Counted from the first letter of the stretch, positions 800 to 61,203 are shown. The stretch: DNA of 64,000 nucleotides from Thermoanaerobaculia bacterium (GCA_963816185.1 CAWFJJ010000001.1:512001-576000); one strand, 5' to 3'. The notes: generated from the sequence alone by a model not told the origin. Numbers and translations: made by a program.

Positions 800-2617
800 T
801 CACGCCGGCCCGGTCGACTCCACGATTCTCAGAAGGTCTTTTGCGGGGTCGAGCTCTATGCCGGCGACGAACTTCTTCGAGAGGTTCGGGACGGTGACCG
901 TCGTCGTCGAGATGCCGTCGAGGTTCACGGTCACATCGAACGTCGACCCATCGAGGACCGTGAGCCGAACGACGAGCGTGAAGACGTAGAACGGCTTGTC
1001 GTTCGGACCCGCGACCGGATGGACGACGGTGTGGCCCTGCGTCTGTGTGACCGCCAGCGTCACCGTCGAGGCGTCAGGCGCGTTCTGGTACGTAGCGCGG
1101 AGAACCGGCCGGAAAGGCGTCTCGACCCACTGGTCGAAGAACTGCTTCAGGTCGAGGCCGCTCGCCCTCTCGAAGTCGGCTCGGAGGTCGGCGCGCGATG
1201 CCGTTCCCCACGCGTGCGCGTCTCCGTAGGCGCGAAGCGCCGGGAAGAAGGTGGCGTCGCCCACGAGCCGGCGGAGCATGTGCAGCGCGCGCGCCCCTTT
1301 GTAATAGACGGAGCCCGTGTTCGCGAACGGCGCAGACGGGTCGGCCACGACGGGCGGCGCGAGGCGGCCTCCGTAGAGGTTGTCGTCGTAGGACGCCGAC
1401 AGAGTGGCCCCGGGCGCGAATCCGAGCGCCTTCTCGAGGTACAGGACCTCGCCGTACGTCGCGAACCCTTCGTTCAGCCAGACGTCGTCCCACGTCCGCA
1501 TCGTCACGCGGTCGCCCCACCAGTCGTGCGAGAGCTCGTGGACGAGGAGCGTCGTGATGTCCCGGTCCGTGTTCGCGAGGATGCCCGTACCGATCGACGT
1601 CATCGTCGGGTGCTCCATGCCGCCCGAGAAGGACGAGGCGACGATGCCGTACTTCGTGTCGAGAAACGGGTACTCGCCGAATATCGACGCCTGCGTTGCG
1701 ATGTGGTTCTTGATCGCAGAGAGCCGGGCGACGTTTTCGGCCGCGTACTCGGGCAGGAGGTACGAGCGGATCGGCATCGTCCGTCCGTCGAGCGCCGTGT
1801 ACGTGTCCTCGACGGTCACGTAGTTCGCGACGTTGAGGGACACGAGGTACGTCGAGATGGCTTGCGGGAGCCTCCACGTATACGTGCTCCGGCCGCCGCC
1901 CGCGTCGGCGACCGAGACCGTGCCGGCGGAGGCCGCGACGTAGCCCGCCGGAACCGTGGCGTGAACGGTGACGACGGCCTTGTCCTTCGGGTCGTCCACG
2001 CAGGGCCAGAACGTGCGCGCGAGAAACGGCTCGGCCACGCTCGTCGCGGCGTAGCCCGATTCGTGCTGCCAGAAATCGATGGCGGCCGCCGCGGGCGGCT
2101 GCCCGCCGTACGAGACCGAGATCGTCGCCCGCTCCTCGGCGCCGAGCGGCGGATCGAACGGGATCACGAGCTTCCCGGACGCGTGAACGGCCGCCACGGC
2201 GACGCCGTCGCGCAGCGCCGCCGTCACGGAGTACGCGTCGTCGAAGTCGAGTGCAAGGGAAGAGGTCTTTCGCGCGAAGCCGGCCACGCGGATGACGGTC
2301 GTCCCCGACAGGAACCTCACGGCGGGGTCCATGTCGAACGAGACGTCGTATGAGAGGACGTCGATGCCGCGGTCCGCGCCTTCGACCGACGGAGGAACGC
2401 CGGCCGCGGCGCGCGCGGCGGCGGCGGCTTCGAAACGCGCGCGCTTGGCCGCGGCCTCGACGTGCTCGCGAAACGGGCTGCGGTCGATGCCGAGGGAGGG
2501 AAAAGAGGATGCTGCGAATGAAAGAGAGAGAAGGAAGAATGCCGCGAGCACGCCTGCCGCCAACGAGTGGGCCGGGGATGGGCCGCCGCGGGGACCGTCT
2601 CTCCTCCTTCTAAGCAT
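800..2617 (-). CDS. Secreted M1 family zinc aminopeptidase
   Basis: GGMEHP (GAMEN-like), HELSH-X18-E (WLNEGFATY), YYKG motif; N-terminal hydrophobic segment. Confidence 0.88.
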   Translation of the reverse strand: MLRRRRDGPRGGPSPAHSLAAGVLAAFFLLSLSFAASSFPSLGIDRSPFREHVEAAAKRARFEAAAAARAAAGVPPSVEGADRGIDVLSYDVSFDMDPAVRFLSGTTVIRVAGFARKTSSLALDFDDAYSVTAALRDGVAVAAVHASGKLVIPFDPPLGAEERATISVSYGGQPPAAAAIDFWQHESGYAATSVAEPFLARTFWPCVDDPKDKAVVTVHATVPAGYVAASAGTVSVADAGGGRSTYTWRLPQAISTYLVSLNVANYVTVEDTYTALDGRTMPIRSYLLPEYAAENVARLSAIKNHIATQASIFGEYPFLDTKYGIVASSFSGGMEHPTMTSIGTGILANTDRDITTLLVHELSHDWWGDRVTMRTWDDVWLNEGFATYGEVLYLEKALGFAPGATLSASYDDNLYGGRLAPPVVADPSAPFANTGSVYYKGARALHMLRRLVGDATFFPALRAYGDAHAWGTASRADLRADFERASGLDLKQFFDQWVETPFRPVLRATYQNAPDASTVTLAVTQTQGHTVVHPVAGPNDKPFYVFTLVVRLTVLDGSTFDVTVNLDGISTTTVTVPNLSKKFVAGIELDPAKDLLRIVESTGPA

Positions 2618-2653
2618 CTCTTGGCCGTCCCCCGGTGATGTGTCCCTGCAATC

Positions 2654-4045
2654 TCATGCGAGGAGCTTTCCGATGGCCTCGCCGCTCGCGATGCGCTCGC
2701 CGAGGGCGATGCCGTCGCGGAAGCCGCCGGTCACGTGCAGCGCGCCGGGCGCCGCCGCGTCGAGTGCGACGAGGTCCTGCTCGAGCGCCGCGAGCGTGCG
2801 GTGATGGCCGAGCGGAAGCTGCGGGATCGCCTCCGGCCACCGCGCGATCCACGACCGGGCGGCCGGGCCCAGGCGCGGGAAGAAGCGTGCGACCTCCGCC
2901 GATGCGACCGCGAGGAGGTCCTCGTCGGGCGCGCTCGCCAGCCTGCTGTCGAGGGCTCCGCCGAGGAACGACGTCGTGAGAACGAAGCCTTCGGGCGCCC
3001 GCCCCGTGAAGAGCGACGCCGGATAAAGGATGCCGAGGGAGCGAAATCCTTCCACCTGGGGGATGAGCCCGCCAAACCCGTGCGGAGCGTCGTGCGGCGA
3101 GGCCGGCGCGCGGTATGCCTGCATGACCACGGTGACGGGCGAGTACGCCACGAGAGCGAGGCCCGCGGTCGAGCGCGTCAGGACGCCGCCGAGGAGCCGC
3201 GCGTCCGCAGAGGCCGAGAGCGTCGACACGAGAACGTCGGCGTCGAAGGTCCGCCCGTCGGCAGTGCGCACCGTCCAGCGCCGCCCCGGCGGGGCCGGTG
3301 TGCGCGGCCCTTCGATCGTGACGACGGCCGTGCCCAGCTCCAAATGGAAGCCGGGTTGCGAAGAGAGACGTTGTTGAAGAGTCTCTATGAGGGTGTAGAG
3401 GCCGCCGTCGAACGTGAGGGTCCGAGCGCGATGTCGCGGCGCACCCGCAGCTCCGCCCTCTTTCTTCTTCGTCCTTCTAAGAAATCCTCTTATGACGCTT
3501 CCCGCTGCTCCCTCCGCCTCCCACAGGCGCGGGAACGCCGATCGAATCGAAAGCGAGCGCGGATCGCCCGCGTAGACTCCGGACACCATCGGCCCCGCGC
3601 CGTACACCGCCGCCTCCTCGCCGAAGCGCCGCGCGAAGAAGGAGTGGACGCTCTCGTCGTCCAAAGACGCGGGCCGCGGCGCCACGAACGGCTCCTTGAG
3701 GAGGCGCAGCTTTCCCTTCATCGTGAAGACCTTGTTGAAGAGCGCAGCGGGGCCGGGCACGACCGCGCGGGGCGAGCCGCCGCGTACGATCCAGCGCGGA
3801 GCCTTGCGGTCGGCCTTGACGGTACGAGCCGCGAGACCGAGATCGGCGAGGAGGCGCTCGGCGGCCTCGGTCGTGCGCAGCGTGTTCGGCCCGCATTCGA
3901 GCGTGAACCCGTCCTCCCGGATCGTCCTGATCGAGCCGCCCGCCTGCGGCCCCGCCTCGAGGATGACCGTCTCGCCCTCTCTCCCGCGCCGGAACGCGGT
4001 CGTGAGGCCCGCGATCCCGCCTCCGAGGATGACGACGCGTGTCAC
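2654..4045 (-). CDS. hemY: FAD-dependent protoporphyrinogen/coproporphyrinogen oxidase (HemY/HemG type)
   Basis: GTG start overlaps hemH stop; GGGIAGL dinucleotide motif, ECGPNT, GVYAGD; heme operon context. Confidence 0.88.
   Translation of the reverse strand: MTRVVILGGGIAGLTTAFRRGREGETVILEAGPQAGGSIRTIREDGFTLECGPNTLRTTEAAERLLADLGLAARTVKADRKAPRWIVRGGSPRAVVPGPAALFNKVFTMKGKLRLLKEPFVAPRPASLDDESVHSFFARRFGEEAAVYGAGPMVSGVYAGDPRSLSIRSAFPRLWEAEGAAGSVIRGFLRRTKKKEGGAAGAPRHRARTLTFDGGLYTLIETLQQRLSSQPGFHLELGTAVVTIEGPRTPAPPGRRWTVRTADGRTFDADVLVSTLSASADARLLGGVLTRSTAGLALVAYSPVTVVMQAYRAPASPHDAPHGFGGLIPQVEGFRSLGILYPASLFTGRAPEGFVLTTSFLGGALDSRLASAPDEDLLAVASAEVARFFPRLGPAARSWIARWPEAIPQLPLGHHRTLAALEQDLVALDAAAPGALHVTGGFRDGIALGERIASGEAIGKLLA
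3474..3486 (+). repeat. Dispersed motif CTTCTAAGAAATC (antisense within hemY)
   Basis: Exact consensus copy within a pyrimidine tract. Confidence 0.75.
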
Positions 4046-9782: not shown

Positions 9783-10840
9783 CGACCGCCGCCGCCGTGC
9801 GCCCTCTTCGAATGGGCACGCGGGCGAGCGCGCTGGCGCGCACTCAGTCGGGCGCCTTCGCGGCGCAGCTGGCGCTCCTCTCGGGCCGCCCCGTCGAGAC
9901 GATCGTCATCCGCACGCACGGCGATCAGCTTTCGAGCGAGGGCAAGGCCCCGCCCGGAGGGGACGCCGCCGGCGTCTTCGTTCGCGCGCTCGACGAGGCG
10001 CTCCTGAGGAACGAGATCGACTTCGCCGTCCATTCCCTGAAGGACGTTCCGACGGCCGTCGCTCCCGGCGTCGCTCTCGCCGCCGTGCCGAAGCGTGCGG
10101 ACGGGCGCGACGCGCTCGTCGTCGCCTCGCGTCACGCCGGCGTCACGACGGTGAGCGCGCTTCCACCCGGGGCGCGCGTCGCCACGTCGTCGCCCCGGCG
10201 GGTGTCGCAGCTCCTGAGTTTACGGCCCGACCTCGTGACGGTCGCGATCGCGGGCAACGTGGACACGCGCCTCCAGCGCCTCGAAGAGGGCCGCGCCGAC
10301 GCGCTCATCCTCGCGTGCGCGGGCCTCGACCGGCTCGGAAGGGAAAACGTCATCACACGCCGGCTCGAGAGGGACGAGATGCTCGGCGCGCCGGCGCAGG
10401 GCGCCCTGGGAATCAGCTGCCGAGAGGACGACGTCGAAACGATCGCGGCGTTGAAGAGGATGGATGATTTCGAGACGCGCATGGCGGCCGAAGCCGAAAG
10501 GGATCTGCTGCATTTCCTGAGAGGCGGATGCCGGGCGCCTGTCGGCGCCCGGGGATTCTTCGAAGGGGAAGAGGGGAGCCGCACGCTGAAGCTCGTGGGC
10601 CGCGTGCTGTCGCTCGACGGCCGCGAATGCCTCGAAGACGAAGTGAGCGAGCCGTTCGCGCCGCCGTCCCACTCTTCACTTTCTAAGAAATCTCCGTCTT
10701 TGTCTCCTTATTCTTCTTCCCCTTCCAAGAAATCTTCGTCTTCCTCTTTCTCTTCTCTTGGTCGCGCCCTCGCCGAGCGCCTTCTCGCGCGCGGCGCCGC
10801 GCGACTCATCGACGCGGCGCGAGAGCGGACACCGGGGTGA
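9779..10840 (+). CDS. hemC: Hydroxymethylbilane synthase (porphobilinogen deaminase) with a Ser-rich insert near the C-terminus
   Basis: GTRASALA, AVHSLKDVP, TSSPRR, GNVDTRL, GGCRAPVG. Confidence 0.95.
   Translation: MTTAAAVRPLRMGTRASALARTQSGAFAAQLALLSGRPVETIVIRTHGDQLSSEGKAPPGGDAAGVFVRALDEALLRNEIDFAVHSLKDVPTAVAPGVALAAVPKRADGRDALVVASRHAGVTTVSALPPGARVATSSPRRVSQLLSLRPDLVTVAIAGNVDTRLQRLEEGRADALILACAGLDRLGRENVITRRLERDEMLGAPAQGALGISCREDDVETIAALKRMDDFETRMAAEAERDLLHFLRGGCRAPVGARGFFEGEEGSRTLKLVGRVLSLDGRECLEDEVSEPFAPPSHSSLSKKSPSLSPYSSSPSKKSSSSSFSSLGRALAERLLARGAARLIDAARERTPG
10680..10734 (+). repeat. Two tandem dispersed-motif copies (TTTCTAAGAAATC, CTTCCAAGAAATC) forming the Ser-rich insert of hemC
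   Basis: Copies at 10680-10692 and 10722-10734 within a ~90-nt pyrimidine tract. Confidence 0.75.
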
Positions 10841-11613
10841 GCGGCAGGATTCTCCTCCTGCGCTCCGGCGCCGCCGGCTCCGAAGACGCCCTTCCGGGCG
10901 ACGTGACCGTCCTTTACACGCACACCGTCGTTCCGCGTCCCGAGGGCATCGCCGAAGCGCTCGCGTTCGACGCGCGCGGAGCGACGCTCGTGATTTCTTC
11001 GAAGGAGACGGTCAACTATCTGCTCCCCCTCTTTCGCGCTCCTTTCGCCCAGATGCTGGCGGTAGGACAGGGCACGGGGACTCTGCTCAGAAAGGTGAAT
11101 ATGGGGGGCGCCGGGGGAGGCCGCCTGGGCGAAGCGACGAACGCCGGCGGGGAAATCGCACCGCCAGTCATCGTCCCCGAGGTTCCCGGAGCCGCGGGTG
11201 TCCTTCACTTTCTAAGAAACTCTTCCGTGCCCTCCCTCATGCGCATCCTCTGGCCGCATGGCTCCGACGCGGCGCCCGAGCCGCTGGAGCAGGTGCGCGC
11301 TCTCGGCATCCGGCTCGTCGCGCCGATCGTTTACGAAAAACGTCCTCTTTCTCCCTCCGAGCTGAATCCCTCGATCCTCGCCGATTTCCGAGCAGGCCGG
11401 TTCGCCGCGGTCGCCGTGGGCTCCACGGCGGCCCTCGACGTCCTGCTCGCCGCCCTGGATTCCAAGGCCGCGCGTCCACCGAAAGTAAGATGGGGCGTGC
11501 TCGGGCCCGAGAGCGCGAAGGCCGTGACCGCCCGAGGCCTTCCGGCCCCCTCGATTCCCGCGCACGCGCGACTTTTCGACCTCCTCGAGCTCCTGCGGAA
11601 GGAAACACGATGA
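10837..11613 (+). CDS. hemD: Uroporphyrinogen-III synthase (divergent)
   Basis: Position between hemC and hemB; AVGQGT, IVYEK, LGPESA HemD-like motifs. Confidence 0.7.
   Translation: MSGRILLLRSGAAGSEDALPGDVTVLYTHTVVPRPEGIAEALAFDARGATLVISSKETVNYLLPLFRAPFAQMLAVGQGTGTLLRKVNMGGAGGGRLGEATNAGGEIAPPVIVPEVPGAAGVLHFLRNSSVPSLMRILWPHGSDAAPEPLEQVRALGIRLVAPIVYEKRPLSPSELNPSILADFRAGRFAAVAVGSTAALDVLLAALDSKAARPPKVRWGVLGPESAKAVTARGLPAPSIPAHARLFDLLELLRKETR
10992..11221. repeat. Inverted pair of dispersed-motif copies in hemD
   Basis: GATTTCTTCGAAG (10992-11004, -) and TTTCTAAGAAACT (11209-11221, +). Confidence 0.6.
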
Positions 11614-30468: not shown

Positions 30469-31641
30469 ATGTCGCGCCTGACTCTCCAGACCGCCGGCGA
30501 GTCCCACGGTCCGCTCCTGACCGGTCTCGTCACCGGGCTGCCGGCCGGGCTGAGGATCGACGTCGCGGCGCTGAACGGAGACCTCGCGCGGCGGCAGCAC
30601 GGGTACGGCCGCGGCGGCCGCATGAAGATCGAGAAGGACGAGGCGCGGTTCACGGGCGGCCTGAGGGGCGGCGAGACGCTCGGGGGCCCGATCGCCTTCG
30701 AGATCGCGAACCGGGACCACGGCGTGTGGGAGGGCGTCATGGGGCCGGTCGAGATCGACGTGGAGGCTGCGGGAAAGAGGAAGCTCACGTCGCCACGTCC
30801 GGGCCACGCGGACCTCGCGGGCGGCCTGAAGTACGGCCGGCGCGACCTGCGCGATATTCTCGAGCGCGCGAGCGCGCGCGAATCCGCGGCGCGCGTGGCG
30901 GCCGGCGCGCTCTGCCGGCAACTCCTTTTCGTCTTCGGGATCCGTGTGAAGAGCGGCGTGCTTTCGATCGGCGACGTCGCGGTACCTGAGGGGCCGCGCG
31001 ACTTCGACGACCTCGACAAGGTCGACGAAACGTCGCCGTTCCGGCTCGTGGACCGGAGCGTCGAGGCGGCCATGAAGGACGCCGTCGACGCGGCCGCAAA
31101 GGCAGGCGACACGCTCGGCGGGACGATTCTCGTCGGCGCCCGCGGTGTGCCGGCGGGCCTCGGCTCCCACGTGTCGTGGGAGGAGAAGCTGGACGGCCGG
31201 ATCGCGCGCGCGCTGATGTCGATTCCCTCCGTGAAGGCCGTCTCCCTGGGCGAGGGCGTCGCGAACGCGTTCCGCCGCGGCTCCGCCGCGCACGACCCGA
31301 TCGCGTACGAGGCCGGGCGTGGATTCTCACGGACCTCGAACCGCGCCGGCGGCCTCGAAGGCGGCATCACGAACGGCGAGGACGTCCTCGCCAGGCTCTA
31401 CCAGAAGCCGATCTCCACGCTTCGCGACGGCCTTCCGTCGGTGGATATCGAGACCAAGAAGCCGCACCGGGCGCAGTTCGAGCGTTCGGACGTGACGGCC
31501 GTGCCCGCGTGCGGGGTCATCGGAGAAGCGATGCTCGCCTTCGTCCTCGCCGACGCCCTCCTCGAGAAGACGGGGGGGGATTCCATGGAAGAAGTGACGA
31601 GGAATTTCGAGGGTTTTACGAAAGCGCAGAAACAATACTGA
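30469..31641 (+). CDS. aroC: Chorismate synthase
   Basis: TAGESHG, PRPGHAD, ERASARE, GGLEGGITNG. Confidence 0.97.
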   Translation: MSRLTLQTAGESHGPLLTGLVTGLPAGLRIDVAALNGDLARRQHGYGRGGRMKIEKDEARFTGGLRGGETLGGPIAFEIANRDHGVWEGVMGPVEIDVEAAGKRKLTSPRPGHADLAGGLKYGRRDLRDILERASARESAARVAAGALCRQLLFVFGIRVKSGVLSIGDVAVPEGPRDFDDLDKVDETSPFRLVDRSVEAAMKDAVDAAAKAGDTLGGTILVGARGVPAGLGSHVSWEEKLDGRIARALMSIPSVKAVSLGEGVANAFRRGSAAHDPIAYEAGRGFSRTSNRAGGLEGGITNGEDVLARLYQKPISTLRDGLPSVDIETKKPHRAQFERSDVTAVPACGVIGEAMLAFVLADALLEKTGGDSMEEVTRNFEGFTKAQKQY

Positions 31642-31655
31642 ACATTTCGAAGAGA

Positions 31656-31720
31656 ATCTTCTTAGAAGGGTAAGAGGGCCAGCCCGTGGACTTCGACCTG
31701 GAATTTCCTTCTAAGAAATC
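31656..31720. repeat. Inverted pair of dispersed-motif copies at the aroC/aminotransferase junction
   Basis: ATCTTCTTAGAAG (31656-31668, -) and CTTCTAAGAAATC (31708-31720, +). Confidence 0.75.
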
Positions 31721-32825
31721 TTCCGTCCAGTTCAACCACGCCGCCGTCTGTCCGCTGCCCGCCCGCGCGGCCGCCGCACTGCTCGCGTACGCGCGCAACC
31801 TGACGGAGCGCGGAGGCCTCGACTGGCACGACTGGCCGAAGAAGGCCGACGAGGTTCGCGCCTTCGCGGCGCACCTCGTCGGCGCGGACGAGCGCGTCGG
31901 GGGAGCCGGCTCGATCTCGATCGTGCCGAACACCACGTGGGGCCTCGACATCGTGGCGCAGGGGCTCGACTTCTTGCCCGGCGACTCGGTCGTCACGACG
32001 GCCTCGGAGTTTCCCGCGAACCTCGCCCCGTGGGTCGCGCTGGAAAAGAGGGGCGTCTCGGTACGCCGCGTCCCGACGCAGGATGGCGCCTTTTCGGCCG
32101 ACGACGTGGCGGCTGCCTGCGACGAAACAACCCGGCTCGTGTCCGTCTCGCTCGTCGCATTTCACACGGGCTTCCGGGCGCCCGTCGAAAAGCTCGGGAC
32201 GTTCTGCAGATCCCGAGGCATCGTCTTCGGTCTCGACGCGATTCAGGCCGTGGGTGGACAGCGAGTGGACGTCGTGGACTGGCACGTGGACTTCCTCTCC
32301 GCGGACGGACACAAATGGATGCTCGGACCCGAAGGCTGCGGCATCCTCTTCACGACACCGGAGCTCAACGCCCGCCTCGCGCCTCCGCCCGGCTGGACGA
32401 ATCTCAAGCGCGCGCACGGCGCGGACTTCCGCGTGCCCGGGAAGCCCGAATACCTTACGGGCGGTTCCCGGTTCGAGCCGGGAGCGCTTCCGACGCCGGG
32501 CCTTTACGCGCTCGCGGCGTCGCTCGGGCTCCTTCTCGAGATCGGCCTTCCCGAGGTGGAGCGCCGGATCGCGAAGACGCTCGACGTTCTCATCGAAGGC
32601 CTCCCGCGCCTCGGCTTCACGCCGGTCCTCTTCGGCGGGCCGCCGCGCTCGGGCATCCTCGCGGCGCGCCCTCCGGCGGGGAAGGACGCGTACTACTACC
32701 AGAAGCGCGCGGCCGACCAGAACGTCGTGATCGCGGCGCGCGAGGGCTTCGTACGCTTCTCACCCCACGTCGGGAACGACGAGGAGGAGGCCGAGCGCGT
32801 CCTGGCGATGCTGAAGAGGCTTTAG
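31686..32825 (+). CDS. Class V PLP-dependent aminotransferase (cysteine desulfurase-like)
   Basis: FNHAA, EFPAN, DAIQ, DGHKWMLGPEG. Confidence 0.85.
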   Translation: MDFDLEFPSKKSSVQFNHAAVCPLPARAAAALLAYARNLTERGGLDWHDWPKKADEVRAFAAHLVGADERVGGAGSISIVPNTTWGLDIVAQGLDFLPGDSVVTTASEFPANLAPWVALEKRGVSVRRVPTQDGAFSADDVAAACDETTRLVSVSLVAFHTGFRAPVEKLGTFCRSRGIVFGLDAIQAVGGQRVDVVDWHVDFLSADGHKWMLGPEGCGILFTTPELNARLAPPPGWTNLKRAHGADFRVPGKPEYLTGGSRFEPGALPTPGLYALAASLGLLLEIGLPEVERRIAKTLDVLIEGLPRLGFTPVLFGGPPRSGILAARPPAGKDAYYYQKRAADQNVVIAAREGFVRFSPHVGNDEEEAERVLAMLKRL

Positions 32826-42550: not shown

Positions 42551-43330
42551 ATGAGAAGAACACTTCGGAACGGCCTCGCCGTCTGTGTCGCAATCGTGGC
42601 TTTTCTCGCGTCTCCCGCGGCTCTCGCCGCCAAGAAGAAGACGCCGACTCCATCTTCCTCGGACTCTTCGACCGCATCGAAAGCGGATAAAACCGAAAAG
42701 GTCAACCTGAACACGGCAGACGAAAAGACGATCGCCGGAGCGAAGGGTGTCGGCGAGAAGCTCGCCCAGGAGCTCGTCAAGAACCGTCCGTACAAGACGT
42801 GGGAAGAGGTCTCGAAGGTCAAGGGCGTCGGCTCGGGCAAGAAGCTGGAATCGCTCAAGAAAGTCCTGAAGCTCTCCGAGGGCGTGGGAACGCCCGCGGC
42901 GAAGGAGGAGACGGCCGGGGAGACGAAGACGAAGGGGAAGAAATCGAAGATTTCTTCGAAGGGTGAGGAGACTCCTCCCGCTGCGAGCGGCCGCGGGGCC
43001 ACGGGTGGCGGCGCCAGCGCGGGTGGCGCGGCTGCAGGCGGCTCCACGGGCAACGGCAAGGCGACAGAGTCCGCCTCGCCCTCTTCACCTTCTAAGAAAT
43101 CTTCTTCGTCTTCCTCTTCGAAGCTCGCCCCCGGCACGAAAATCAACATCAATACCGCCACGAAGGAAGAGCTCGACGCGCTGCCGGAGATCGGTCCGGT
43201 GAAGGCGCAGGCCATCGTGGATTACCGCAGCGCGCACGGGGCTTTCGCCGCGCCCGAGGACATCATGAAAGTCTCGGGCATCAAGGAAGGCACGTACGCG
43301 AAGATCAAGGCCTACATCGTCGTAAAATAG
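42551..43330 (+). CDS. Exported ComEA-like DNA-binding protein with two HhH domains
   Basis: Signal peptide; KVNLNTA..GVG and KININTA..LPEIGPVKAQAIVDYR domains joined by a low-complexity linker. Confidence 0.85.
   Translation: MRRTLRNGLAVCVAIVAFLASPAALAAKKKTPTPSSSDSSTASKADKTEKVNLNTADEKTIAGAKGVGEKLAQELVKNRPYKTWEEVSKVKGVGSGKKLESLKKVLKLSEGVGTPAAKEETAGETKTKGKKSKISSKGEETPPAASGRGATGGGASAGGAAAGGSTGNGKATESASPSSPSKKSSSSSSSKLAPGTKININTATKEELDALPEIGPVKAQAIVDYRSAHGAFAAPEDIMKVSGIKEGTYAKIKAYIVVK
42949..43101. repeat. Inverted pair of dispersed-motif copies in the ComEA linker
   Basis: GATTTCTTCGAAG (42949-42961, -) and CTTCTAAGAAATC (43089-43101, +). Confidence 0.75.
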
Positions 43331-46071: not shown

Positions 46072-47135
46072 TGCGAGGAGGACGTCGTCCGTCATCGGAG
46101 CCGGCCTCGCCGGGTTCGCCTCCCCTGCCCCCCCTCTCATCCTCTCTAAGAAATCCCTCTTCCTCTTCTTCTTCTTCGATTTCCGTCTTTGCTCCCGCGT
46201 CGGTCGCGAACTTCGGGGTCGGCTTCGACGTCCTCGGCGCCGCGCTGGACGGGCCGGGCGACACGCTCACGGCCCGGCTCACGCGCACGCCGGGCGTGAG
46301 GGTCGTTTCGATCTCGGGCGACGGCGGGCGGCTGCCGCGGGACCCGCGGCTCAACACGGCCGCGGTCTCGGCCGCCGCGGTTCTCGCGAAGCTCGGTGGC
46401 CGTCGCGGAGACGCTGGACGGCCCGGAATCGAGCTCTTCCTCGAGAAGGGGCTGCCGCTCTCGAGCGGCCTCGGCTCCTCGGCCGCCTCGGCCGCCGCCG
46501 GCGCCTACGCCGCCGGCCACCTTCTCGGCGTGAAAGACCGCAAGGAGCTCCTCGGCGCGGCGCTCGAGGGAGAGCGCGCCGCAGACGGCTCGTGGCACGG
46601 CGACAACGTGTTCGCCGCGCTGCTCGGAGGGGTCCTCCTCGTGCCCTCTTCCGATCCCGGCGGCACCCTCGCTCCCATTTCGCTTCGCGTCCCGCGGCGC
46701 ATGCGCATCGTGGTCGTGATTCCCGGCCTGGAGCTGCCCACGCGGCGCGCTCGCGGCGCCCTGCCGCGGACGATTCCGATGGGTGCGCACACGGCGCACG
46801 CCGGCGCGCTCGCGCGCCTCGTCCTCGCGCTCGCGTCGGGAGATCTCGCAACGGCGGGAGCCTGCCTCCTTTCCGACCGCCTCGTGGATCCGAAACGGCT
46901 TCCTCTCATTCGCGGAGGGCGCGCCGCTCTCGACGCGCTCCTGGATGCCGGCGCGTACGGCGCCTGCCTCGCGGGGGCCGGGCCGTCCCTCGTCGGACTC
47001 ACCGAGGAGTCGAAGGACGCGGAAGAGATCGGCCGCGCCGCGGTCGCCGCGTGGAGGCGCTCCGGCGTCGAGGCGCGCGCCCGCGTGCATCGCATCGATC
47101 GGCGCGGCACGAGGCTCGCCGGGATGCGCGCGTGA
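46071..47135 (+). CDS. thrB: Homoserine kinase with a Pro/Ser-rich N-terminal extension
   Basis: PASVANFGVGFDVLG, GLGSSAAS, HGDNV, GAGPS. Confidence 0.92.
   Translation: MRGGRRPSSEPASPGSPPLPPLSSSLRNPSSSSSSSISVFAPASVANFGVGFDVLGAALDGPGDTLTARLTRTPGVRVVSISGDGGRLPRDPRLNTAAVSAAAVLAKLGGRRGDAGRPGIELFLEKGLPLSSGLGSSAASAAAGAYAAGHLLGVKDRKELLGAALEGERAADGSWHGDNVFAALLGGVLLVPSSDPGGTLAPISLRVPRRMRIVVVIPGLELPTRRARGALPRTIPMGAHTAHAGALARLVLALASGDLATAGACLLSDRLVDPKRLPLIRGGRAALDALLDAGAYGACLAGAGPSLVGLTEESKDAEEIGRAAVAAWRRSGVEARARVHRIDRRGTRLAGMRA
46143..46155 (+). repeat. Dispersed motif TCTCTAAGAAATC in the thrB N-terminal extension
   Basis: Core TCTAAGAAATC followed by a (TCT)n tract. Confidence 0.72.
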
Positions 47136-54911: not shown

Positions 54912-54924
54912 TTCTTCTTAGAAA
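54912..54924 (-). repeat. Dispersed motif variant TTTCTAAGAAGAA (intergenic)
   Basis: TTCTTCTTAGAAA within a purine tract on the + strand. Confidence 0.6.
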
Positions 54925-54941: not shown

Positions 54942-55020
54942 TTCCCGAATGGCCGATGTCAAGGGTCTATGACCGCTGCGCGGCGCGCGAAGCGCGCCCT
55001 TGACATCGGTCATTCGGGAA
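54942..55020. repeat. 24-bp inverted repeat (23/24) with a 31-bp spacer; each arm holds an outward-facing TTGACA
   Basis: TTCCCGAATGGCCGATGTCAAGGG (54942-54965) and CCCTTGACATCGGTCATTCGGGAA (54997-55020). Confidence 0.85.
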
Positions 55021-55035
55021 GCAAGTTTTCCACTA

Positions 55036-56850: not shown

Positions 56851-57339
56851 TCAGTTCGCCAGCGGCGGTCCGCCGAACGCACGCAGCGTGGCGCGGCGCT
56901 GCTGGCGGTGGGCGGCGATCCAGCCATCGAGCCTCGACTTCTGGTCCGGCGTCAGAACGCCGTTGATCTCGGCGTGAACGCTCTGGAGCTGTGACCTGAA
57001 GGATTGCGCGTCGGCACGCACTTTGAGAAACGCGGCTCCGACGACGGCTGGATCCGGATCGGCGGCCGAGGCCGCAGCCTTGAGGGCCTGGCGGTTCGCC
57101 TTCGCCTGAGTCCGGAAGGCCTCGAACCGGTCCTTGTGAGACGCGAAGATCGCCTTGACCTGGGTCTTCTGGGCGTCGCTGAGATCCAGGGTCGCCATTG
57201 CCGCGCGGACTCCACGGGCGAAGTGACCACCGCCTCCCGGGTTCTGGCCAAGAGCCACGCCTCCGGCGAGGGCGAGAGCGAACGCCGTGACTCCGACGGT
57301 AAGGCCGATCTTGTTGCTGCTGAAGATTTTACGGTTCAC
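56851..57339 (-). CDS. Spy/CpxP family periplasmic chaperone
   Basis: Signal peptide, LDLSDAQK and VLTPDQK (LTxxQ) motifs. Confidence 0.82.
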   Translation of the reverse strand: MNRKIFSSNKIGLTVGVTAFALALAGGVALGQNPGGGGHFARGVRAAMATLDLSDAQKTQVKAIFASHKDRFEAFRTQAKANRQALKAAASAADPDPAVVGAAFLKVRADAQSFRSQLQSVHAEINGVLTPDQKSRLDGWIAAHRQQRRATLRAFGGPPLAN

Positions 57340-57390
57340 TTGAGTTCCTCCCTGCGGGGCCCTCACTCTTCGAGGGACCGCAGGTAGTGA

Positions 57391-57416
57391 GACGCGAGGG
57401 CTCGACGCGCGTTTAC
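57391..57416 (-). promoter_or_regulatory. ECF-type promoter candidate GTAAAC-N16-CGTC upstream of the Spy gene
   Basis: Matches the AAAC-N16-CGT ECF consensus. Confidence 0.5.
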
Positions 57417-57428
57417 GTTCTGAGAGTC

Positions 57429-58181
57429 TCAGAACCTCTCCCCGACGAGCACGATCGCGCCCGTGGGCTTCGGGACGCCACCCTTCGGCTCGATCGAGAC
57501 GGCGAACTTCACCGGAGCCTCGCCGAGGTTCTCCTCCTTCGAGATCGGAATGACGGTCGCGCCGTCGGGGCGCGTCTCGAACGTGCCCGCAGGGACGGGC
57601 TGGTCGCCCACGAAGGCCCACAGCTCGTAGCTCTGCTCGAGCGGCAGCGGCGGGAGGCCGCTGACCCAGAGGATTCCCTGCTTCGTCTCGGGCTGCCAGA
57701 GGAGCTTCGCTTTCGCGGTCGGGTTCGACTCGAGGCCCCTCAGGAGGGCGACCTGGACGCGAGGATCCTTCAGCCACGCGAGCTCGGCGTCCTTCGCCTT
57801 CAGGTCGCGATCCTTGTCCTGGAGCATCCCTTCGAGCTGGGCGACGTTCGCGCGCGTGGCGCCGAGGTCGGCGCGCGTCGCGTACCAGAGCGCCGCGAAC
57901 GCCGCGGCGAGCATGAACGAGGCCGCGACACCGAGCGCCCAGGCCATCGTCGCGAGGCCGCGGTCCGGCATTCCGGATGAAACCGCGCGAGGGGAAACGC
58001 TCGCCTGTTGGCCCCGGATCTGCCAGAGAACGCGCTCCTTCAGCTCGAGCGGCGGTGCGGTCTCGGGCGGAGCCGGGGCGCCGTCTTCCGTGGCGTCGAG
58101 CTCGGCTTCGAGGGCGTCGCACCATGTCGCGAATTCCTTCGCGAAGAGGGACGTGCGGGGGTCGATGCGGTCGTCAGCCAC
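57429..58181 (-). CDS. RskA-like anti-sigma factor
   Basis: PPLELKERVL, one TM helix, GLPP..YELW..PVPAG, FAVSIEPKGG.P.PTG. Confidence 0.88.
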   Translation of the reverse strand: MADDRIDPRTSLFAKEFATWCDALEAELDATEDGAPAPPETAPPLELKERVLWQIRGQQASVSPRAVSSGMPDRGLATMAWALGVAASFMLAAAFAALWYATRADLGATRANVAQLEGMLQDKDRDLKAKDAELAWLKDPRVQVALLRGLESNPTAKAKLLWQPETKQGILWVSGLPPLPLEQSYELWAFVGDQPVPAGTFETRPDGATVIPISKEENLGEAPVKFAVSIEPKGGVPKPTGAIVLVGERF

Positions 58182-58734
58182 GGCCAGCCCCTTCTTCCCC
58201 GGCGATCGCTCTGAGCTTCGTAAGGCCCGAACGCGTCCGGCTCTTCACCGTGCCGAGAGGCTCGTTCAGGCGCGCGGCGATCTCCTCCTGCGTGTAGCCG
58301 TCGAAGTACGCGAGGCGGAGGACGGCCTGCTCGCTCTCGGACAGCTTCTCGAGGCATCGAGAAACGTAGTCGCGCACCGCGGCTGCTCCCTGCCCGCCGT
58401 CGCCGTCGCCGGCGCGGTCGAGCGACTCGTCCGGAGCCGCGGAAAAGCGCTGCTCGATGGAGTGGCGGCTTCGCCAGCGGTCGAGAGCCCGGCTGCGCGC
58501 GATCGTGAACAGCCACGTCTTCACCGACGCGCGCGTCGCGTCAAACCGGCGCGCGTCGCGCCACGCCTGAATGAAGGCTTCCTGCAGCACGTCTTCGGCG
58601 TCCCTCGCGTCCTTGAGGATACGGACGCAGAAGGCAAAAAGGACCGGTGCGTACCGGTCGTAAAACAGACCGAACGCGTCGCGATCGCCTTCGGCAATCC
58701 GCGCGAAAAGCTCGGGGTCGGCCGGCGCGCTCAC
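58174..58734 (-). CDS. ECF sigma factor (SigK-like)
   Basis: [40 protein letters not shown]; AAGGAG RBS. Confidence 0.93.
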
Positions 58735-58814
58735 GGTGAAACTCCTTTCAGCCTGCCCGCCCGGCCCGAATGTGTCAAGCACCCCGTGGATACGAAGGCG
58801 TACCCGAGCGCGGA

Positions 58815-58843
58815 TTGACGCTGCCAAACGGGGCCGGTACCGT
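58815..58843 (+). promoter_or_regulatory. sigma70 promoter TTGACG-N17-TACCGT, probably leaderless, for parC
   Basis: -35 and -10 boxes with a 17-nt spacer; -10 ends 6 nt before ATG 58850. Confidence 0.55.
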
Positions 58844-58849
58844 CATCCC

Positions 58850-61171
58850 ATGTCGAAGAGAAAGCTCTCCAACGCGGGCGGCCAGCCCCCGCTGCCTTTC
58901 GATGCCGAGATCCCGCTTCCCGAAGAGGCCCGGCGAAGGTACCTGAACTATGCCCTCTCGGTCATCACGTCCCGCGCCCTGCCGGACGTGCGTGACGGGC
59001 TCAAGCCCGTGCAGCGCCGCATCCTCTTCGCGATGTTCCAGAACCTCCACCTGACGCCGGACGCGAAGTTCAAGAAGTCCGCGACCGTGGTGGGCGACGT
59101 CATCGGCAAGTACCACCCGCACGGCGATGTCGCGATCTACGACGCGATGGTGCGCATGGCGCAGCCTTTCTCGCTCCGCGCGCCTCTCGTGGACGGGCAC
59201 GGCAACTTCGGCTCGCTCGACGGCGACGCGGCGGCGGCGTATCGCTACACCGAGGCGCGCCTCCGCCCGCTCGCGATCGAGCTCCTGTCCGAGATCCGCA
59301 GGAAGACGGTCGACTGGCGCCCGAACTTCGACGGCGTCCACTTCGAGCCGGTGGTCCTGCCCGCGCGATACCCGAACCTCCTCGTCAACGGCGCGACGGG
59401 CATTGCGGTCGGAATGGCGACTTCGATCCCGCCGCACAACCCGGTCGAGGTGCTCGACGCCGCGATGGCGGCCGTTGACGACCGCGACGCGGACCCGCTG
59501 CGCTTCATCAAGGGTCCGGACTTTCCGACGGGCGGGCTTCTCGTCTCCGGCAAGCGAGAGCTGCGCGCGATCTACGAGAGCGGCCAGGGCACGTTGAAGC
59601 TGCGGGGCGAGTGGGAGATCGAGGAGGGCGCCCGCGGGGCCCGGACCATCGTCGTCACGTCGATCCCGTACGCGCAGGAGAAGGCGAGTCTCGTCGCGAA
59701 GATCGCGGACGTCATCATCGAACGGCGGCTCGCGTCCCTCGTCGACGTCCGCGACGAATCCACCGAGGGCGTGCGCATCGTCCTCGAGATCAAGCGCGAG
59801 GCCGACCCCGCGCTCGTCATGACGTATCTGTACAAGCACACGCCGCTCGAGACGACGGTGCCGGTGAACCTGACGTGCCTCGTGCCGACCGCGAGACCGG
59901 AGGTGTGCGAGCCGGCGAGGCTTCCGCTCGCCGCGATCCTCCGGCACTTCCTCGACTTCCGGCTCGAGACGGTTCGGCGGAGGTTCCTGTTCGACCTCGA
60001 GGAGCTGAAGAGGCGCCTCCACCTCCTCGAGGGCTTCATCGTCATCTACGACGCGCTCGACGAGGCGATCCGCATCATCCGCAAGTCCGACGGAAAGGCC
60101 GATGCCGCCGGCAAGCTCATGAAGCGCTTCTCTCTCGACGAGGAGCAGGTCGAGGCGATCCTCGAGACGAAGCTCTACAAGCTCGCGCGTCTCGAGATCG
60201 ACGCGATCCGTGCCGAGCTGAAAGAAAAGACGGCCGAGGCGGCCATCATCGAGGCGATCCTGAACTCGCCGAAGAAGCTCTGGAACGAGGTGAAGGGCGA
60301 GCTCGCCGAGGTGCGCGAGTCGCTCGCGGGCGAAAAGCGCCGGACGAAGGTTCTCGCGAGCGTCGACGAGCCGACGTACGACGCGGAAGCCTTCATCCAG
60401 CACGAGGACACGTACGCGATCGTCTCGCAGGACGGCTGGCTGAAGCGCCAGCGCGAGATGAAGGACCCGAAGTCCACGCGCCTGAGGGAAGGAGACGAGG
60501 TGCTCGCCGTGCTGCAGGGCTCGACGAAGGAGGCGGCCGTCCTCTTCTCGAATCGCGGCACCGCGTACGTCCTGAGGCTCAACGACGTGCCGCCGTCGAC
60601 CGGCTACGGCGAGCCCGTGCAGAAGGTCTTCAAGTTCGGAGACGGCGAGCGGGTCGTCGCGGCGCTGTCCCTCGATCCGCGGCTCACGCCGGAGAAGAAG
60701 GTGCTCCTCCTCGCCGCCACGCGCCGAGGTCTCGTCCTGAGGTTCTCTCTCGATCCGTTCCGCGAGGTGACGACGCGCGCGGGGAGGCGCTTCGCGAAGC
60801 CCGCGAAGGGCGACGAGATTGCATCCGTCTTCGTGTGCGAGGAGAAGGACCTCGTGGCCCTCGCGTCGGAGAAGGGCCGCGCGATCCTGTTCCCGGCGAG
60901 CGAGGTGCCCGTCCTCGCGGGACCCGGCAAAGGCGTCCTCGGCTTCAAGCTCGCGCCGGACGACCGCCTCGTGGGCGCGGCGCTCTTCGGAGACGACGAG
61001 AGGCGGGCGACTCTCACGCTCGTGAACGGCAAGGGGACCGAGCACACGATCACACGCCGATACACCCCCGTCTCTCGCGGCGGGAGGGGCTTCGAGCTGA
61101 TCAAGCGCGACAAGCTGGTCAAGGCGATTCCGGCGGAGATCACTTTGGTTGATTTCGGCGGGGGCAATTGA
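58850..61171 (+). CDS. parC: DNA topoisomerase IV subunit A (type IIA A-subunit)
   Basis: [30 protein letters not shown]; CTD lacks the GyrA-box. Confidence 0.85.
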
Positions 61172-61190
61172 GAAAGAGGGACCGACCGGG

Positions 61191-61203
61191 GATTGCTTAG
61201 AAG
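61191..61203 (-). repeat. Dispersed motif variant CTTCTAAGCAATC (parC-ispH intergenic)
   Basis: GATTGCTTAGAAG followed by a purine tract. Confidence 0.68.

Follow-up and report, generated by a model that had tools for sequence, protein, structure and literature searches.

The AT-rich word TCTAAGAAATC is the core of a larger DNA signal that is repeated hundreds of times across the genome, is confined to one group of uncultured soil Acidobacteria (a Thermoanaerobaculia clade), and is under a constraint that acts on the nucleic acid and not on the protein. The window, that is, the whole stretch of 64,000 nucleotides that was analyzed, contains the five exact copies reported by the initial annotation, all on the + strand (3476, 10682, 31710, 43091, and 46145), and no copy occurred in 100 dinucleotide-preserving shuffles of the window. 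In the 5.09-Mb genome, the 11-mer amounted to 111 copies in one count and to 201 copies in a comparison with a reversed-control word, which itself occurred 11 times; this enrichment, together with a literature search in which we found no relevant publication on the motif, agrees with the earlier description of an undescribed genome-wide signal. With a 13-mer and at most two mismatches, nine window matches were found versus 0.24 expected, including those at 10722, 10992(-), 42949(-), and 61191(-). A position weight matrix (PWM) trained on the genome's own motif copies identified, at a threshold of at least 16 bits, 13 window sites (2608, 3475, 10556(-), 10681, 10723, 11210, 31659(-), 31709, 42952(-), 43090, 46144, 54915(-), and 61194(-)). 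All the variants listed at first were thus recovered except 10992(-), a one-mismatch match scoring below 16 bits, which is probably not a true motif member.

The half-site outlined by the genomic copies is asymmetric and extends for about 24 bp, with the consensus cccnnTTCACC-TTCTAAGAA-Atc followed by a G-poor pyrimidine tail. The 9-mer core is present 337 times genome-wide, 172 times on the + strand and 165 times on the - strand, and the frequency of G around it does not exceed 0.11 from position -10 to position +14, which confirms the polypyrimidine context noticed previously. It had also been claimed that nearly all CTAAG/CTTAG words of the window belong to the motif, and indeed 10 of the 11 occurrences of CTAAG on both strands (23.6 expected from the shuffles) lie within motif copies. 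At a threshold of at least 18 bits, 722 half-sites were found in the 5.09 Mb, corresponding to one half-site per 7 kb and to one exact 11-mer per 25 kb. The units are clustered (gap coefficient of variation [CV], 1.47), and their density among large contigs covers a five-fold range, from 0.47 to 2.33 per 10 kb. The window sites are as follows.

2607..2619, + strand: variant half-site with core TTCTAAGCA (PWM, 23.4 bits), overlapping the ATG and the MLRRRR start of an M1 peptidase on the - strand, 34 nt downstream of the HemY stop (ORF, Pfam)
3474..3486, + strand: half-site within HemY (protoporphyrinogen oxidase, gene on the - strand), antisense GFLRR, in a loop of variable length
10553..10565, - strand: left half-site of the TTCGAAGAA type in HemC, read GFFEG (PWM, 22.1 bits)
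10680..10692, + strand: half-site with the exact core in the HemC domain-3 loop, read LSKKS (Pfam)
10722..10734, + strand: second, tandem half-site in the HemC tract, core TTCCAAGAA, read PSKKS (30.1 bits)
10992..11004, - strand: weak one-mismatch copy in HemD (VISSK), below 16 bits
11087..11104, + strand: degenerate left half-site TCAGAAAGGTGAATATGG in HemD, partner of the one at 11209
11209..11221, + strand: half-site in HemD, read FLRNS (33.4 bits)
31656..31668, - strand: left half-site, intergenic, at the aroC/aminotransferase junction (34.0 bits)
31708..31720, + strand: right half-site of the aroC/aminotransferase unit, codons 8 to 12 (PSKKS) of a class-V aminotransferase
42949..42961, - strand: left half-site following a purine tract in the ComEA linker, read KISSK (26.6 bits)
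43089..43101, + strand: right half-site in the ComEA linker (PSKKS; 38.0 bits)
46143..46155, + strand: half-site with the exact core in an N-terminal extension of ThrB (SLRNP; Pfam)
54912..54924, - strand: intergenic half-site between two divergent genes (PWM)
61191..61203, - strand: variant half-site with core TTCTAAGCA in the spacer upstream of ispH/lytB (26.2 bits)

The motif is located in intergenic spacers at either end of genes and, in frame, in loops, linkers, and N-termini of proteins. It uses four open reading frames on both strands, and the genes with in-frame copies encode HemC, HemD, HemY, ComEA, ThrB, and the aminotransferase, all on Pfam-supported ORFs; the reading frames proposed initially (PSKKS in ComEA, the aminotransferase, and HemC; LRN in HemD and ThrB; antisense GFLR in HemY) were all confirmed on these ORFs. 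Within genes, essential ones included, the motif is spelt by rare AT-rich codons. In particular, the codon-aware test found PSKK spelt CCTTCTAAGAAA in 31 of 50 cases versus 0.058 expected and FLE spelt TTCTTAGAA in 43 of 402 cases versus 0.28 expected, with a similar enrichment of the motif spelling for LRN, LRK, LRR, and FLR. The excess over codon usage, ranging from 90- to 500-fold and involving four frames on both strands, substantiates the claim that the constraint acts on the nucleic acid. Genome-wide enrichment had been set beforehand as the check on that claim, and it survives both the codon-aware test and a maximal-order Markov model, in which the top over-represented 7-mers and 8-mers are words of the motif.

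No gene-strand bias of the motif was found, with the unpaired copies being 12 in the sense and 18 in the antisense orientation to genes, and orientation showed no link with local GC skew (Fisher P = 0.33 for all half-sites and 0.18 for the unpaired ones). Beyond the tail, genes begin about as often as they end, and the flanking genes of paired copies are co-directional in 115 cases, divergent in 20, and convergent in 11. In 26 of 136 cases, the TAA within the motif delimits the ORF lying downstream, with a start codon 20 to 80 nt beyond. Since gene calls were crude (3469 genes, 83% coding), the coding and intergenic fractions of motif copies are uncertain, within 27 to 57%.

The half-sites are arranged to a large extent in back-to-back inverted pairs, which comprise 430 of the 722 half-sites at 18 bits or more and leave 292 (about 40%) with no detected partner. 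Among close neighbors within 400 nt, the (-,+) orientation occurs 215 times, versus 9 for (+,-), 35 for (++), and 39 for (--), and the spacing of the pairs has its mode at 74 to 78 bp, or at 74 to 76 bp in this neighbor count, with no helical periodicity of 10 to 11 bp beyond this single mode. Partners resemble each other as much as random partners do (z = 0.6, 204 pairs), the lengths of the left and right tails are uncorrelated (rho = 0.02), and the pair spacer folds no more than random genomic DNA does (z = -0.1); the fold of the whole unit (z = -2.7) arises from the arms alone. Neither hairpin nor covariation nor partner-specific complementarity was found in the pairs. Because partners are no more alike than random ones, tails are uncorrelated, and spacers are unfolded, each half-site matches the consensus independently, as would be expected for recognition by a protein. 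The sequence inside the pairs is not homologous between copies and can be essential host sequence, as for the HemC strands and the start codon of the aminotransferase. Eight long-range (-,+) pairs enclose 10 ORFs, none of which is a transposase. The same genome also harbors a separate, true repeat family, with 18 pairs that are all 41 nt apart and conserved inside.

All 26 genomes of genus g1 and all eight genomes of its sister genus g17 carry the 11-mer, the latter at a lower copy number, and one g17 genome was found to have the same consensus and pairing as g1; the counts in eight further genera of the family and in two other families are 0 to 1. The motif-bearing organisms are uncultured MAGs (G000 is 94.9% complete), and the contigs of relatives often break at motif places. 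Within the window, 9 of the 13 sites have an orthologous counterpart in at least one of three species with 85 to 89% DNA identity, and gains or losses between close species concern ThrB, the ispH junction, and the second HemC copy. The half-site at 2607 is retained in G011, G003, and G007, and the one in HemY at 3474 is conserved in four of four syntenic species, with the adjacent loop varying by up to about 100 nt.

In HemC, the half-sites at 10553 and 10680 form a pair, 127 bp apart. The former is present in most orthologues, with a different peptide there in four species, and it may be partly a coding coincidence. The pyrimidine tract after the latter encodes a Ser-rich insert of HemC, which aligns with a variable insert of solved HemC structures, and of 20 readable orthologous loci, 19 have the motif or a near variant here, once in another frame. 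The second HemC copy (10722) is missing from G011, G003, and G007, and one RNA-library contig of a relative lacks these 42 nt. As for HemD, G007 has GTCTCGTCGAAGG at the position of 10992, relatives have TTGCTTAGAAGGGTGAATACGGG at the place of the degenerate half-site at 11087, and the stretch between 11087 and 11209 is hypervariable across species.

At the aroC/aminotransferase junction, 7 nt separate the purine-rich inner arm of the half-site at 31656 from the start codon of the aminotransferase downstream. The core is exact in 11 of 25 orthologous aminotransferase loci and is replaced by near variants in another 7, and the remaining 7 are GC rich and encode the same peptide; a PAS-GGDEF gene is inserted upstream in 5 of these 7 GC-rich loci. 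Motif and non-motif alleles differ by substitutions that preserve the peptide, not by an insertion. In ComEA, the half-site at 42949 and the spacer are deleted in frame in G011, and the (TCT)n-like tract after the half-site at 43089 differs in length between species. The ThrB half-site is within an 87-nt in-frame segment that is absent from G003. The half-site at 54912 has lost its right partner in G000, and the pair is kept, 76 bp apart, in G011 and G003. In most relatives, the ispH junction consists of overlapping stop and start codons (TGATG) with no spacer for the site at 61191.

It is possible to hypothesize that the motif is a recognition site on double-stranded DNA for a putative clade-specific protein, a reading that we hold tentatively and consider plausible rather than probable. 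A sequence-specific protein peculiar to this Thermoanaerobaculia clade would read the half-sites one by one on double-stranded DNA, and the working unit would consist of two of them placed back to back with the tails outward, most often 74 to 78 bp apart. The sites would be held by selection, or by a drive acting on DNA, wherever the genome tolerates the motif, namely, in intergenic spacers at gene ends, surface loops, linkers, and N-termini. We infer for such a protein a role at the level of the chromosome (organization, insulation, or a domesticated recombination function) rather than in the control of particular genes. The constraint at the DNA level, the pairs, the independence from the direction of transcription and replication, the conservation in place, and the restriction to one clade speak for recognition by a protein. 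Against it, the 10- to 11-bp periodicity, which would most clearly have indicated contact between two proteins on the same face of the helix, is absent, a simple binding-site model does not explain the pyrimidine tail, about 40% of the half-sites are partnerless, and the units are clustered, with five-fold differences in density among contigs. Moreover, the gains and losses of copies between close species would also fit a mobile or drive-based origin. Of the three functions offered by the initial annotation, we favor the protein-read site and regard the uptake sequence as less likely, and the evidence speaks against a simple element that invades genes.

Descent from an ancient mobile element of a non-autonomous type, similar to MITEs, REPINs, or RPEs, is unlikely. 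In that case, the half-sites would be terminal repeats once mobilized by a transposase, and most copies would by now be fixed and in decay, or they would have been spread via short-patch gene conversion. Such an element would account for the inverted 24-bp ends and for their spacing of about 75 bp, close to the peaks at 71 and 110 bp given for the REPIN doublets of Pseudomonas fluorescens in PMC3116915, and for in-frame copies in unrelated housekeeping genes, as in the Rickettsia palindromic elements described in PMC10969869. It would also suit the presence or absence among close species of the 87-nt ThrB segment, the spacer at the ispH junction, and the second HemC copy, as well as the contig breaks of relatives. 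However, the pair interiors are not homologous and may be host sequence such as HemC strands or the start codon of the aminotransferase, two partners resemble each other no more than non-partners do, and the sites, spelt by rare codons, keep their places in both genera. The idea that the motif tract is an insertion is opposed by the aminotransferase alleles, which differ at one site by peptide-preserving substitutions, and that of a simple invader by the essential host sequence inside pairs, with no transposase or RAYT partner found. The Y1 transposase (PF01797) had no match in G000 and was present in 3 of the 26 genomes of the genus, with matches in control genomes as well, and no transposase was encountered among the 10 ORFs between the eight long-range pairs, the search being limited to these ORFs and to PF01797. 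Furthermore, neither a clean empty site nor a target duplication was seen, the extra segments of ThrB and of the ispH junction showed neither defined ends nor duplications, and the true repeat family with its constant 41-nt distance has a different appearance. A DNA uptake signal of the USS/DUS type, which competence machinery preferring motif-bearing DNA, together with biased uptake and recombination, would spread and retain at all tolerated places, those within genes included, has an equally low probability in our judgment. The motif resembles such signals in being a 9- to 12-mer in strong excess that is equally frequent on the two strands, in its single clade with one common consensus, in its embedding in several coding frames via codon choice with conserved orthologous sites, and in the biased composition of the sequence on one side of the core. 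The genes for ComEA, ComEC, DprA, and two secretins are present, but they are widespread, control genomes included, and thus little informative. Known USS/DUS systems have about one site per kb, evenly spread, whereas here the half-site recurs on average every 7 kb and the exact 11-mer every 25 kb, in a clustered distribution with a five-fold difference in density among contigs. In addition, one site would suffice for uptake, yet (-,+) pairs outnumber (+,-) pairs by 215 to 9 with a mode of about 75 bp, and the aminotransferase motif is absent in all five genomes with the upstream gene insertion, an absence that uptake does not predict.

Less probable still is a signal acting in RNA, such as an RNase processing or stability site in polycistronic mRNA, a sequence imitating the 16S rRNA 3' end (or a Shine-Dalgarno sequence when the opposite strand is read), or a C-rich, G-poor loading tract for Rho, with the symmetric pair placing the signal in the transcripts of either strand. 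Many copies do lie at operon junctions (aroC/aminotransferase, lysC/thrB, and hemC/hemD), the pair reads alike on both strands, the inner arm of the left half-site precedes the aminotransferase start by 7 nt in many species, and the half-site agrees by eye with the organism's own 16S 3' end and spacer at 13 of 16 ungapped positions around CTAAG. An RNA-library contig of a relative spans the HemC motif, although such libraries can contain DNA, which makes this a weak indication. On the other hand, there is neither covariation nor partner-specific pairing, the spacer is unstructured, the unpaired copies show no sense or antisense preference (12 versus 18), and Rfam 15 gave no match at the gathering score within the window. 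An ordinary transcription signal, consisting of divergent promoter elements or of a bidirectional terminator, is very improbable. The back-to-back orientation is what divergent promoters would show, the TAA of the motif bounds the downstream ORF in 26 of 136 cases with a start codon 20 to 80 nt on, and in a divergent gene pair of G011 a half-site lies 35 to 45 nt upstream of each ATG. Nevertheless, genes end beyond the tail as often as they begin, paired copies occur mostly between co-directional genes (115, versus 20 divergent and 11 convergent), and copies lie within HemC, HemD, HemY, and ComEA. Inspection of the logo by eye revealed no TANNNT hexamer and no conserved -35 element at the proper distance. 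A terminator is further opposed by a spacer with no hairpin, whose loop would measure 25 to 230 nt, by a mixed C/T tail with no U run, and by divergent contexts outnumbering convergent ones (20 versus 11).

Beyond recognition by a protein as such, a more specific proposal, which we regard as rather doubtful, is that of a DNA "punctuation" maintained by the host, paired, read by a putative protein confined to two genera, and of enough importance to be written into essential genes by rare codons. If true, it would represent a new chromosome-organizing signal or the first uptake signal outside Proteobacteria. REP/REPIN, USS/DUS, Chi, KOPS, and parS sequences each led to genome-reading machinery, and the present motif comes from an abundant, uncultured soil lineage. 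It unites features that are separate elsewhere, namely, REPIN-like doublets, a USS-like coding embedding, and conservation in place across two genera, while lacking the hairpin, the transposase, and the density that define REPIN and USS systems. It also explains the Ser/Pro- or Glu/Gly-rich inserts of housekeeping enzymes, tracts of species-variable length, MAG contig breaks, and one apparent frameshift in the HemC of a relative. Moreover, its phyletic pattern (two genera versus eight) offers comparative genomics a direct handle on the putative reader protein. The back-to-back pairs, the 24-bp extent of the half-site, and the restriction to one clade are additions to the initial annotation.

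Compared with known systems, the motif shares with parS, matS, Noc, SlmA, KOPS, and Chi sites the occurrence of specific sites in coding and non-coding DNA under gene-independent selection. However, its copies are far more numerous than those of parS, matS, Noc, and SlmA, it has no replichore polarity of the KOPS and Chi type as judged by GC skew, its consensus is not known to match any of theirs, and pairs and a pyrimidine tail are not known from these site sets. With the USS of Pasteurellaceae and the DUS of Neisseriaceae, it has in common a 9- to 12-mer core, a biased flank, equal strand use, clade specificity, a multi-frame codon embedding, and conserved orthologous copies; different from them, it is about ten times less dense, clustered, and organized in strict tail-to-tail pairs at about 75 bp, where theirs are single sites or tight terminator hairpins. 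The inverted 24-bp half-sites match the terminal inverted repeats of MITEs, but there is no homologous interior, and no transposase was found among the ORFs searched. With REPINs and REP-BIMEs (PMC3116915, PMC3337134), the likeness concerns a short over-represented word, its occurrence mainly in inverted doublets whose spacing shows a sharp preference, unit numbers in the hundreds per genome, clade specificity, and vertical inheritance; here, however, the half-site is non-palindromic, the doublet and spacer have no fold beyond the arms, partners do not covary, copies lie in frame inside genes, where REPINs are extragenic, and a Y1/RAYT gene, not found in G000, was found in only 3 of 26 genus genomes. 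Finally, the Rickettsia palindromic elements (PMC10969869) are likewise palindromic repeats present in frame in unrelated housekeeping genes at places that the fold tolerates, but they are whole elements of 100 to 150 bp with a conserved encoded peptide, whereas the present motif is conserved over only about 24 bp and is read in four frames, with the interior of the pair being host specific or hypervariable.

All five exact copies of the 11-mer TCTAAGAAATC from which the initial annotation had proposed a dispersed DNA motif were found in the window, at 3476, 10682, 31710, 43091 and 46145, every one on the forward strand. The window has a G+C content of 66-72%; 100 dinucleotide-preserving shuffles of it yielded no copy of this word, and the 13-mer of the initial annotation occurs nine times with up to two mismatches, against 0.24 expected. 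CTAAG is found 11 times on both strands, versus 23.6 expected, and 10 of these occurrences lie within motif copies, as had been claimed for nearly all such words. Across the source genome, an assembly of 5.09 Mb in 30 contigs (67.2% G+C) in which the window spans C1:512001-576000, the two strands carry 54 and 57 copies of the 11-mer, 32 and 30 of the 13-mer and 172 and 165 of the 9-mer core TTCTAAGAA. Against a maximal-order Markov model, the most over-represented words of the genome are TAAGAAA at k = 7 (325 versus 113, z = 20), CCTTCTAA at k = 8 (246 versus 105) and the motif-related TTCGAAGAA at k = 9. The next most over-represented 7-mers, both here and in 400 kb of a genome of the sister genus (G050), are AGCGNCT and AGNCGCT words (AGGCGCT, 2541 versus 1747 expected), an excess that may be due to codon pairs or to another signal. 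Words that are A/T homopolymers owe their high count in the genome to 1028 consecutive T and then 65 A at about 1147-2239 of the 15.6-kb contig C10, almost certainly an assembly artefact.

The alignment of the 337 core copies in one orientation gave the consensus cccnnTTC(a/c)C(c/t)-TTCTAAGAA-A(t/a)(c/t)C, with a C at position -2 in 92% of the copies; the pyrimidine context described initially was also borne out, the approximately 30 nt after the motif being poor in G and rich in C and T. The 13-mer is therefore the centre of a larger half-site, asymmetric and about 24 bp long, that carries a pyrimidine tail. On its opposite strand, the half-site resembles, by eye, an extended Shine-Dalgarno sequence. 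A weight matrix spanning positions -12 to +14 identified 860 sites of at least 14 bits in the genome and 231 in reversed or complemented sequence; 722 of the 860 reach at least 18 bits, and the main cores are TTCTAAGAA (332), TTCGAAGAA (199), TTCAAAGAA (50) and TTCTAAGCA (40). The TTCGAAGAA class is in part coding sequence for FFEGEE and FEE in one paralogous gene family, and this part (spacings 93 and 97) was left out of the later pair statistics. In each of at least eight paralogous genes (C23:2634, C23:5303, C24:602898-620203, C28:51682 and others), two motif-like sequences in (-,+) order, 93 nt apart in every case, encode FFEGEE and SFEEI, and a Ser-rich tract comes after them; from the peptide alone, the product of these genes reads like a Ser/Thr protein kinase.

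The half-sites are predominantly arranged back to back, with their tails pointing outward. Among neighbours of at least 18 bits and no more than 400 nt apart, the (-,+) order occurs 215 times, versus 9 for (+,-), 35 for (+,+) and 39 for (-,-), and such pairs take in 430 of the 722 half-sites and 211 of 329 exact cores. The core-to-core distance extends from 45 to about 250 bp with a sharp mode at 74-76 bp (23 of 193 pairs fall within one 3-nt bin); helical phasing was rejected, with no significant periodicity at 5-20 bp. The sequence between half-sites shows no homology between units and folds like random genomic pieces (mean z = -0.1), the value of -2.7 for the whole unit being contributed by the arms alone. 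Furthermore, half-sites share 17.0 identical positions of 31 within a pair and 16.9 across pairs (z = 0.6, 204 pairs), the lengths of the two tails of a unit show no correlation (rho = 0.02), and tail complementarity within units is not raised (p = 0.11), with no excess duplex energy. The unstructured spacer, the lack of partner-specific agreement and the uncorrelated tails rule out both an RNA stem joining the half-sites or the purine/pyrimidine tails and a hairpin element or terminator.

In the window, where gene assignments rest on Pfam-supported open reading frames, the copies are located as follows.

2607: copy overlapping the M1 peptidase start codon
31656, 54912 and 61191: intergenic copies
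HemY: copy in a loop, antisense, read as GFLRR
HemC: copies in the domain-3 loop, ahead of the conserved last helix, read as LSKKS and PSKKS
HemD: copy read as FLRNS
ComEA: copies in the linker between helix-hairpin-helix domains, read as KISSK and PSKKS
Class-V aminotransferase: copy within the first 12 codons
ThrB: copy in an N-terminal extension, with no start codon downstream of the motif

These frames agree with the in-gene readings made from the sequence alone, namely PSKKS in ComEA, the aminotransferase and HemC, LRN in HemD and antisense GFLR in HemY. The HemC tract aligns to a variable domain-3 insert of solved porphobilinogen deaminases, and the matches of HemC to bacterial structures end ahead of it. 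Genome-wide, with a crude gene caller (3469 genes, 83% coding), 43% of the core positions are non-coding versus a background of about 16%, and for 92 of 336 copies a single open frame runs through the motif with coding signal in both flanks, these copies being distributed over all four open frames (26, 16, 28 and 22). A translational bypass over in-frame stops was discarded, given that flanks in the same frame with an intervening stop number 30 versus 92 in different frames, no more than chance for neighbouring genes. Beyond the tail, gene starts (start codons mostly 20-80 nt away) are about as frequent as gene ends (stops mostly 20-70 nt away), and this balance, together with the logo and the flanking-gene contexts, rules out a promoter. 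Unpaired copies in co-directional contexts are sense in 12 cases and antisense in 18, and half-site orientation does not follow local GC skew (p = 0.33), which rules out replichore polarity or a polar chromosome signal. The units are clustered (gap CV 1.47), and their density in the large contigs ranges from 0.47 to 2.33 per 10 kb. No half-site occurs in ten contigs of 7-57 kb (C2, C3, C9, C10, C11, C16, C18, C19, C20 and C26), which may be foreign or mobile DNA or the product of binning contamination; the contamination of the assembly is rated 3.4%.

The constraint acts on the DNA, as the codon-aware test called for by the initial annotation showed when run on the genes of the source genome, whose called set has a GC3 of 0.84: the enrichment survives for every peptide considered.

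Peptides spelt with the motif, with counts expected from codon usage
PSKK spelt CCTTCTAAGAAA: 31 of 50; expected 0.058
SKK spelt TCTAAGAAA: 48 of 183; expected 1.8
FLE spelt TTCTTAGAA: 43 of 402; expected 0.28
LRR spelt CTTAGAAGG: 29; expected 0.45
FLR spelt TTTCTTAGA: 26; expected 0.25
LRN spelt CTAAGAAAT: 7; expected 0.016
LRK spelt CTAAGAAAA: 10; expected 0.029

Together with the shuffles, the Markov test and the reversed-pattern control, this result rules out chance or composition as the origin of the motif, while the use of four frames on two strands and the intergenic copies exclude a protein-level PSKKS motif as the primary cause.

The comparison of orthologous loci shows how the tracts are kept and lost. 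Matches to HemC were obtained in 25 of 26 genomes and, after two split or short matches were dropped, 23 loci were inspected; three stop at a contig end ahead of the loop, leaving 20 readable. The exact core occupies the same loop position in 11 of these, variant cores are found in eight (TTCAAAGAA in four, TTCTCAGAA in two, TTCTGAGAA and CTCCAAGAA in one each), and one tract has no core. The tract length varies in nearly every species: in G007, a syntenic species, the motif is read in a different frame and the original frame is then regained, and in another relative (G006, locus L018) the frame after the pyrimidine tract appears shifted relative to the conserved last helix. Contigs of several metagenome-assembled genomes stop at or just ahead of this tract; the HemC tracts appear to hamper assembly or sequencing, or else to contain real frameshifts. 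At the aminotransferase (25 loci), the exact core is present in codons 8-12 in 11 cases and near variants in seven, and the remaining seven use GC-rich codons for a similar peptide (PSRRT or PARR for PSKKS); since the peptide survives where the DNA motif is lost, DNA and protein constraints coexist there. In five of these seven (L039, L040, L042, L050 and L055), a 1.7-kb gene whose start overlaps the aroC stop lies between aroC and the aminotransferase gene, and the left half-site is absent too; in G011, a syntenic species, this gene encodes a PAS-GGDEF protein. The source genome and most others have a motif unit in its place (31560-31730 in the window), in which the aroC stop is followed by a purine tract, which varies greatly in length and is a tandem repeat in one species, and then by the left half-site, the spacer that contains the start codon and the right half-site. 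Overall, 9 of 13 window sites have an orthologous counterpart in at least one of three syntenic species (85-89% DNA identity). The differences concern the second copy in HemC, the unit at aroC, an in-frame ThrB segment of 87 nt that G003 lacks, and the ispH spacer, where stop and start codons overlap in most relatives and a few have motif-bearing spacers; in the ComEA unit of G011, the left half-site and spacer are missing in frame.

The 11-mer CCTTCTAAGAA has 201 copies in the source genome versus 11 for the reversed control. It occurs in all 26 other genomes of the genus searched (37-267 copies each) and in all eight of the sister genus (1-31 each), with 0-1 copies in 26 genomes from eight further genera of the family and in 12 genomes, the unpublished G024 among them, from two further families of the order. 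In 400 kb of G050, the weight matrix gave 34 sites versus 5 in the control, and 10 of 13 close pairs are oriented (-,+); a separate dialect in the sister genus was ruled out, the consensus being that of the source genome. Runs containing parts of the window are soil and sediment metagenomes (Logan contigs; best share 0.35 for DNA and 0.07 for RNA runs), and the matching contigs come mostly from relatives 90-95% alike. One RNA-library contig skips 42 nt at 10708-10751; considered as a splice-like joint, this gap is due to length variation of the tract.

A second, unrelated repeat family consists of CCCGAATGNCCGATGTCAAGGG, 20-odd nt of conserved GC-rich centre and CCCTTGACATCGGNCATTCGGG, with TTGACA words directed outward. 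The window copy is nested within the TTCTAAGAA unit at 54.9 kb:

54944-55018: second repeat, arms at 54953-54965 (-) and 54997-55009 (+)

At this locus the repeat is present in G007 and not in G011. CCTTGACA occurs 107 times in the source genome, and CCCTTGACATCGGNCATTCGGG forms 18 inverted pairs with an invariable spacing of 41 nt and a conserved inside. The repeat looks like a classical small palindromic, REP/MITE-like element; unlike it, the half-site pairs have neither fixed 41-nt spacing nor a conserved inside.

It is possible to hypothesize, tentatively and at somewhat less than even probability, that the motif is a recognition site of a predicted clade-specific protein, which would bind double-stranded DNA and act on paired sites. 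We suggest this because each half-site independently fits one consensus, because the pairs keep to a strict geometry, with outward tails and a mode of 75 bp, because the sites are indifferent to the direction of transcription and replication, and because rare codons maintain them at their positions across two genera; anatomy and constraint are direct observations, and we infer the reader protein and its role. A DNA uptake signal would account for the codon-level drive and the clade specificity, but we regard it as unlikely, as it leaves the pairing, the low density and the clustering unaccounted for, and the presence of the competence-type genes ComEA, ComEC and DprA and of secretins is uninformative in this respect. 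It appears similarly improbable that an old mobile or conversion-driven element is involved, which could explain the gains and losses and the REPIN-like doublets but not the host-specific insides, the substitutional alleles and the long conservation. A signal acting on RNA seems rather remote, yet keeps some probability since the examination covered contigs rather than reads: copies occur at operon junctions, and the half-site resembles the genome's own 16S rRNA 3' end and spacer start (GGATCACCTCCTTTCTAAGGGATCTC; C1, about 445,500), with 13 of 16 positions identical, ungapped, around CTAAG, a comparison made by eye and to be taken as a lead only.

Rfam gave no match in the window, and a description of such an element in Acidobacteria or Thermoanaerobaculia was not found among the literature matches listed (titles and abstracts); those listed for the two 9-mers concern other subjects (STAT sites, primers). 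A REPIN-RAYT system was rejected: PF01797, the Y1/RAYT transposase family that partners REPINs, gave no match in the source genome and matched 3 of the 26 genomes in the genus, the positive controls also gave matches, and copies are also intragenic. A typical MITE was likewise discarded: the insides are unrelated or essential, clean ends were not seen, and none of the ten open reading frames between eight long-range pairs is a transposase by Pfam, which also removes an autonomous element between these pairs. These frames include LeuRS, PheRS alpha and beta, an ABC transporter, an FG-GAP protein, a ferredoxin/metallo-beta-lactamase-fold protein, a TRAM-domain protein and two without a Pfam match.

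The motif is a real and strong member of the dispersed short genomic signals. REPINs and BIMEs (PMC3116915, PMC3337134) have the closest layout, and USS/DUS are closest in the manner of writing into genes; the motif departs from both in defining features, as it does from MITEs and from the Rickettsia palindromic elements (PMC10969869).
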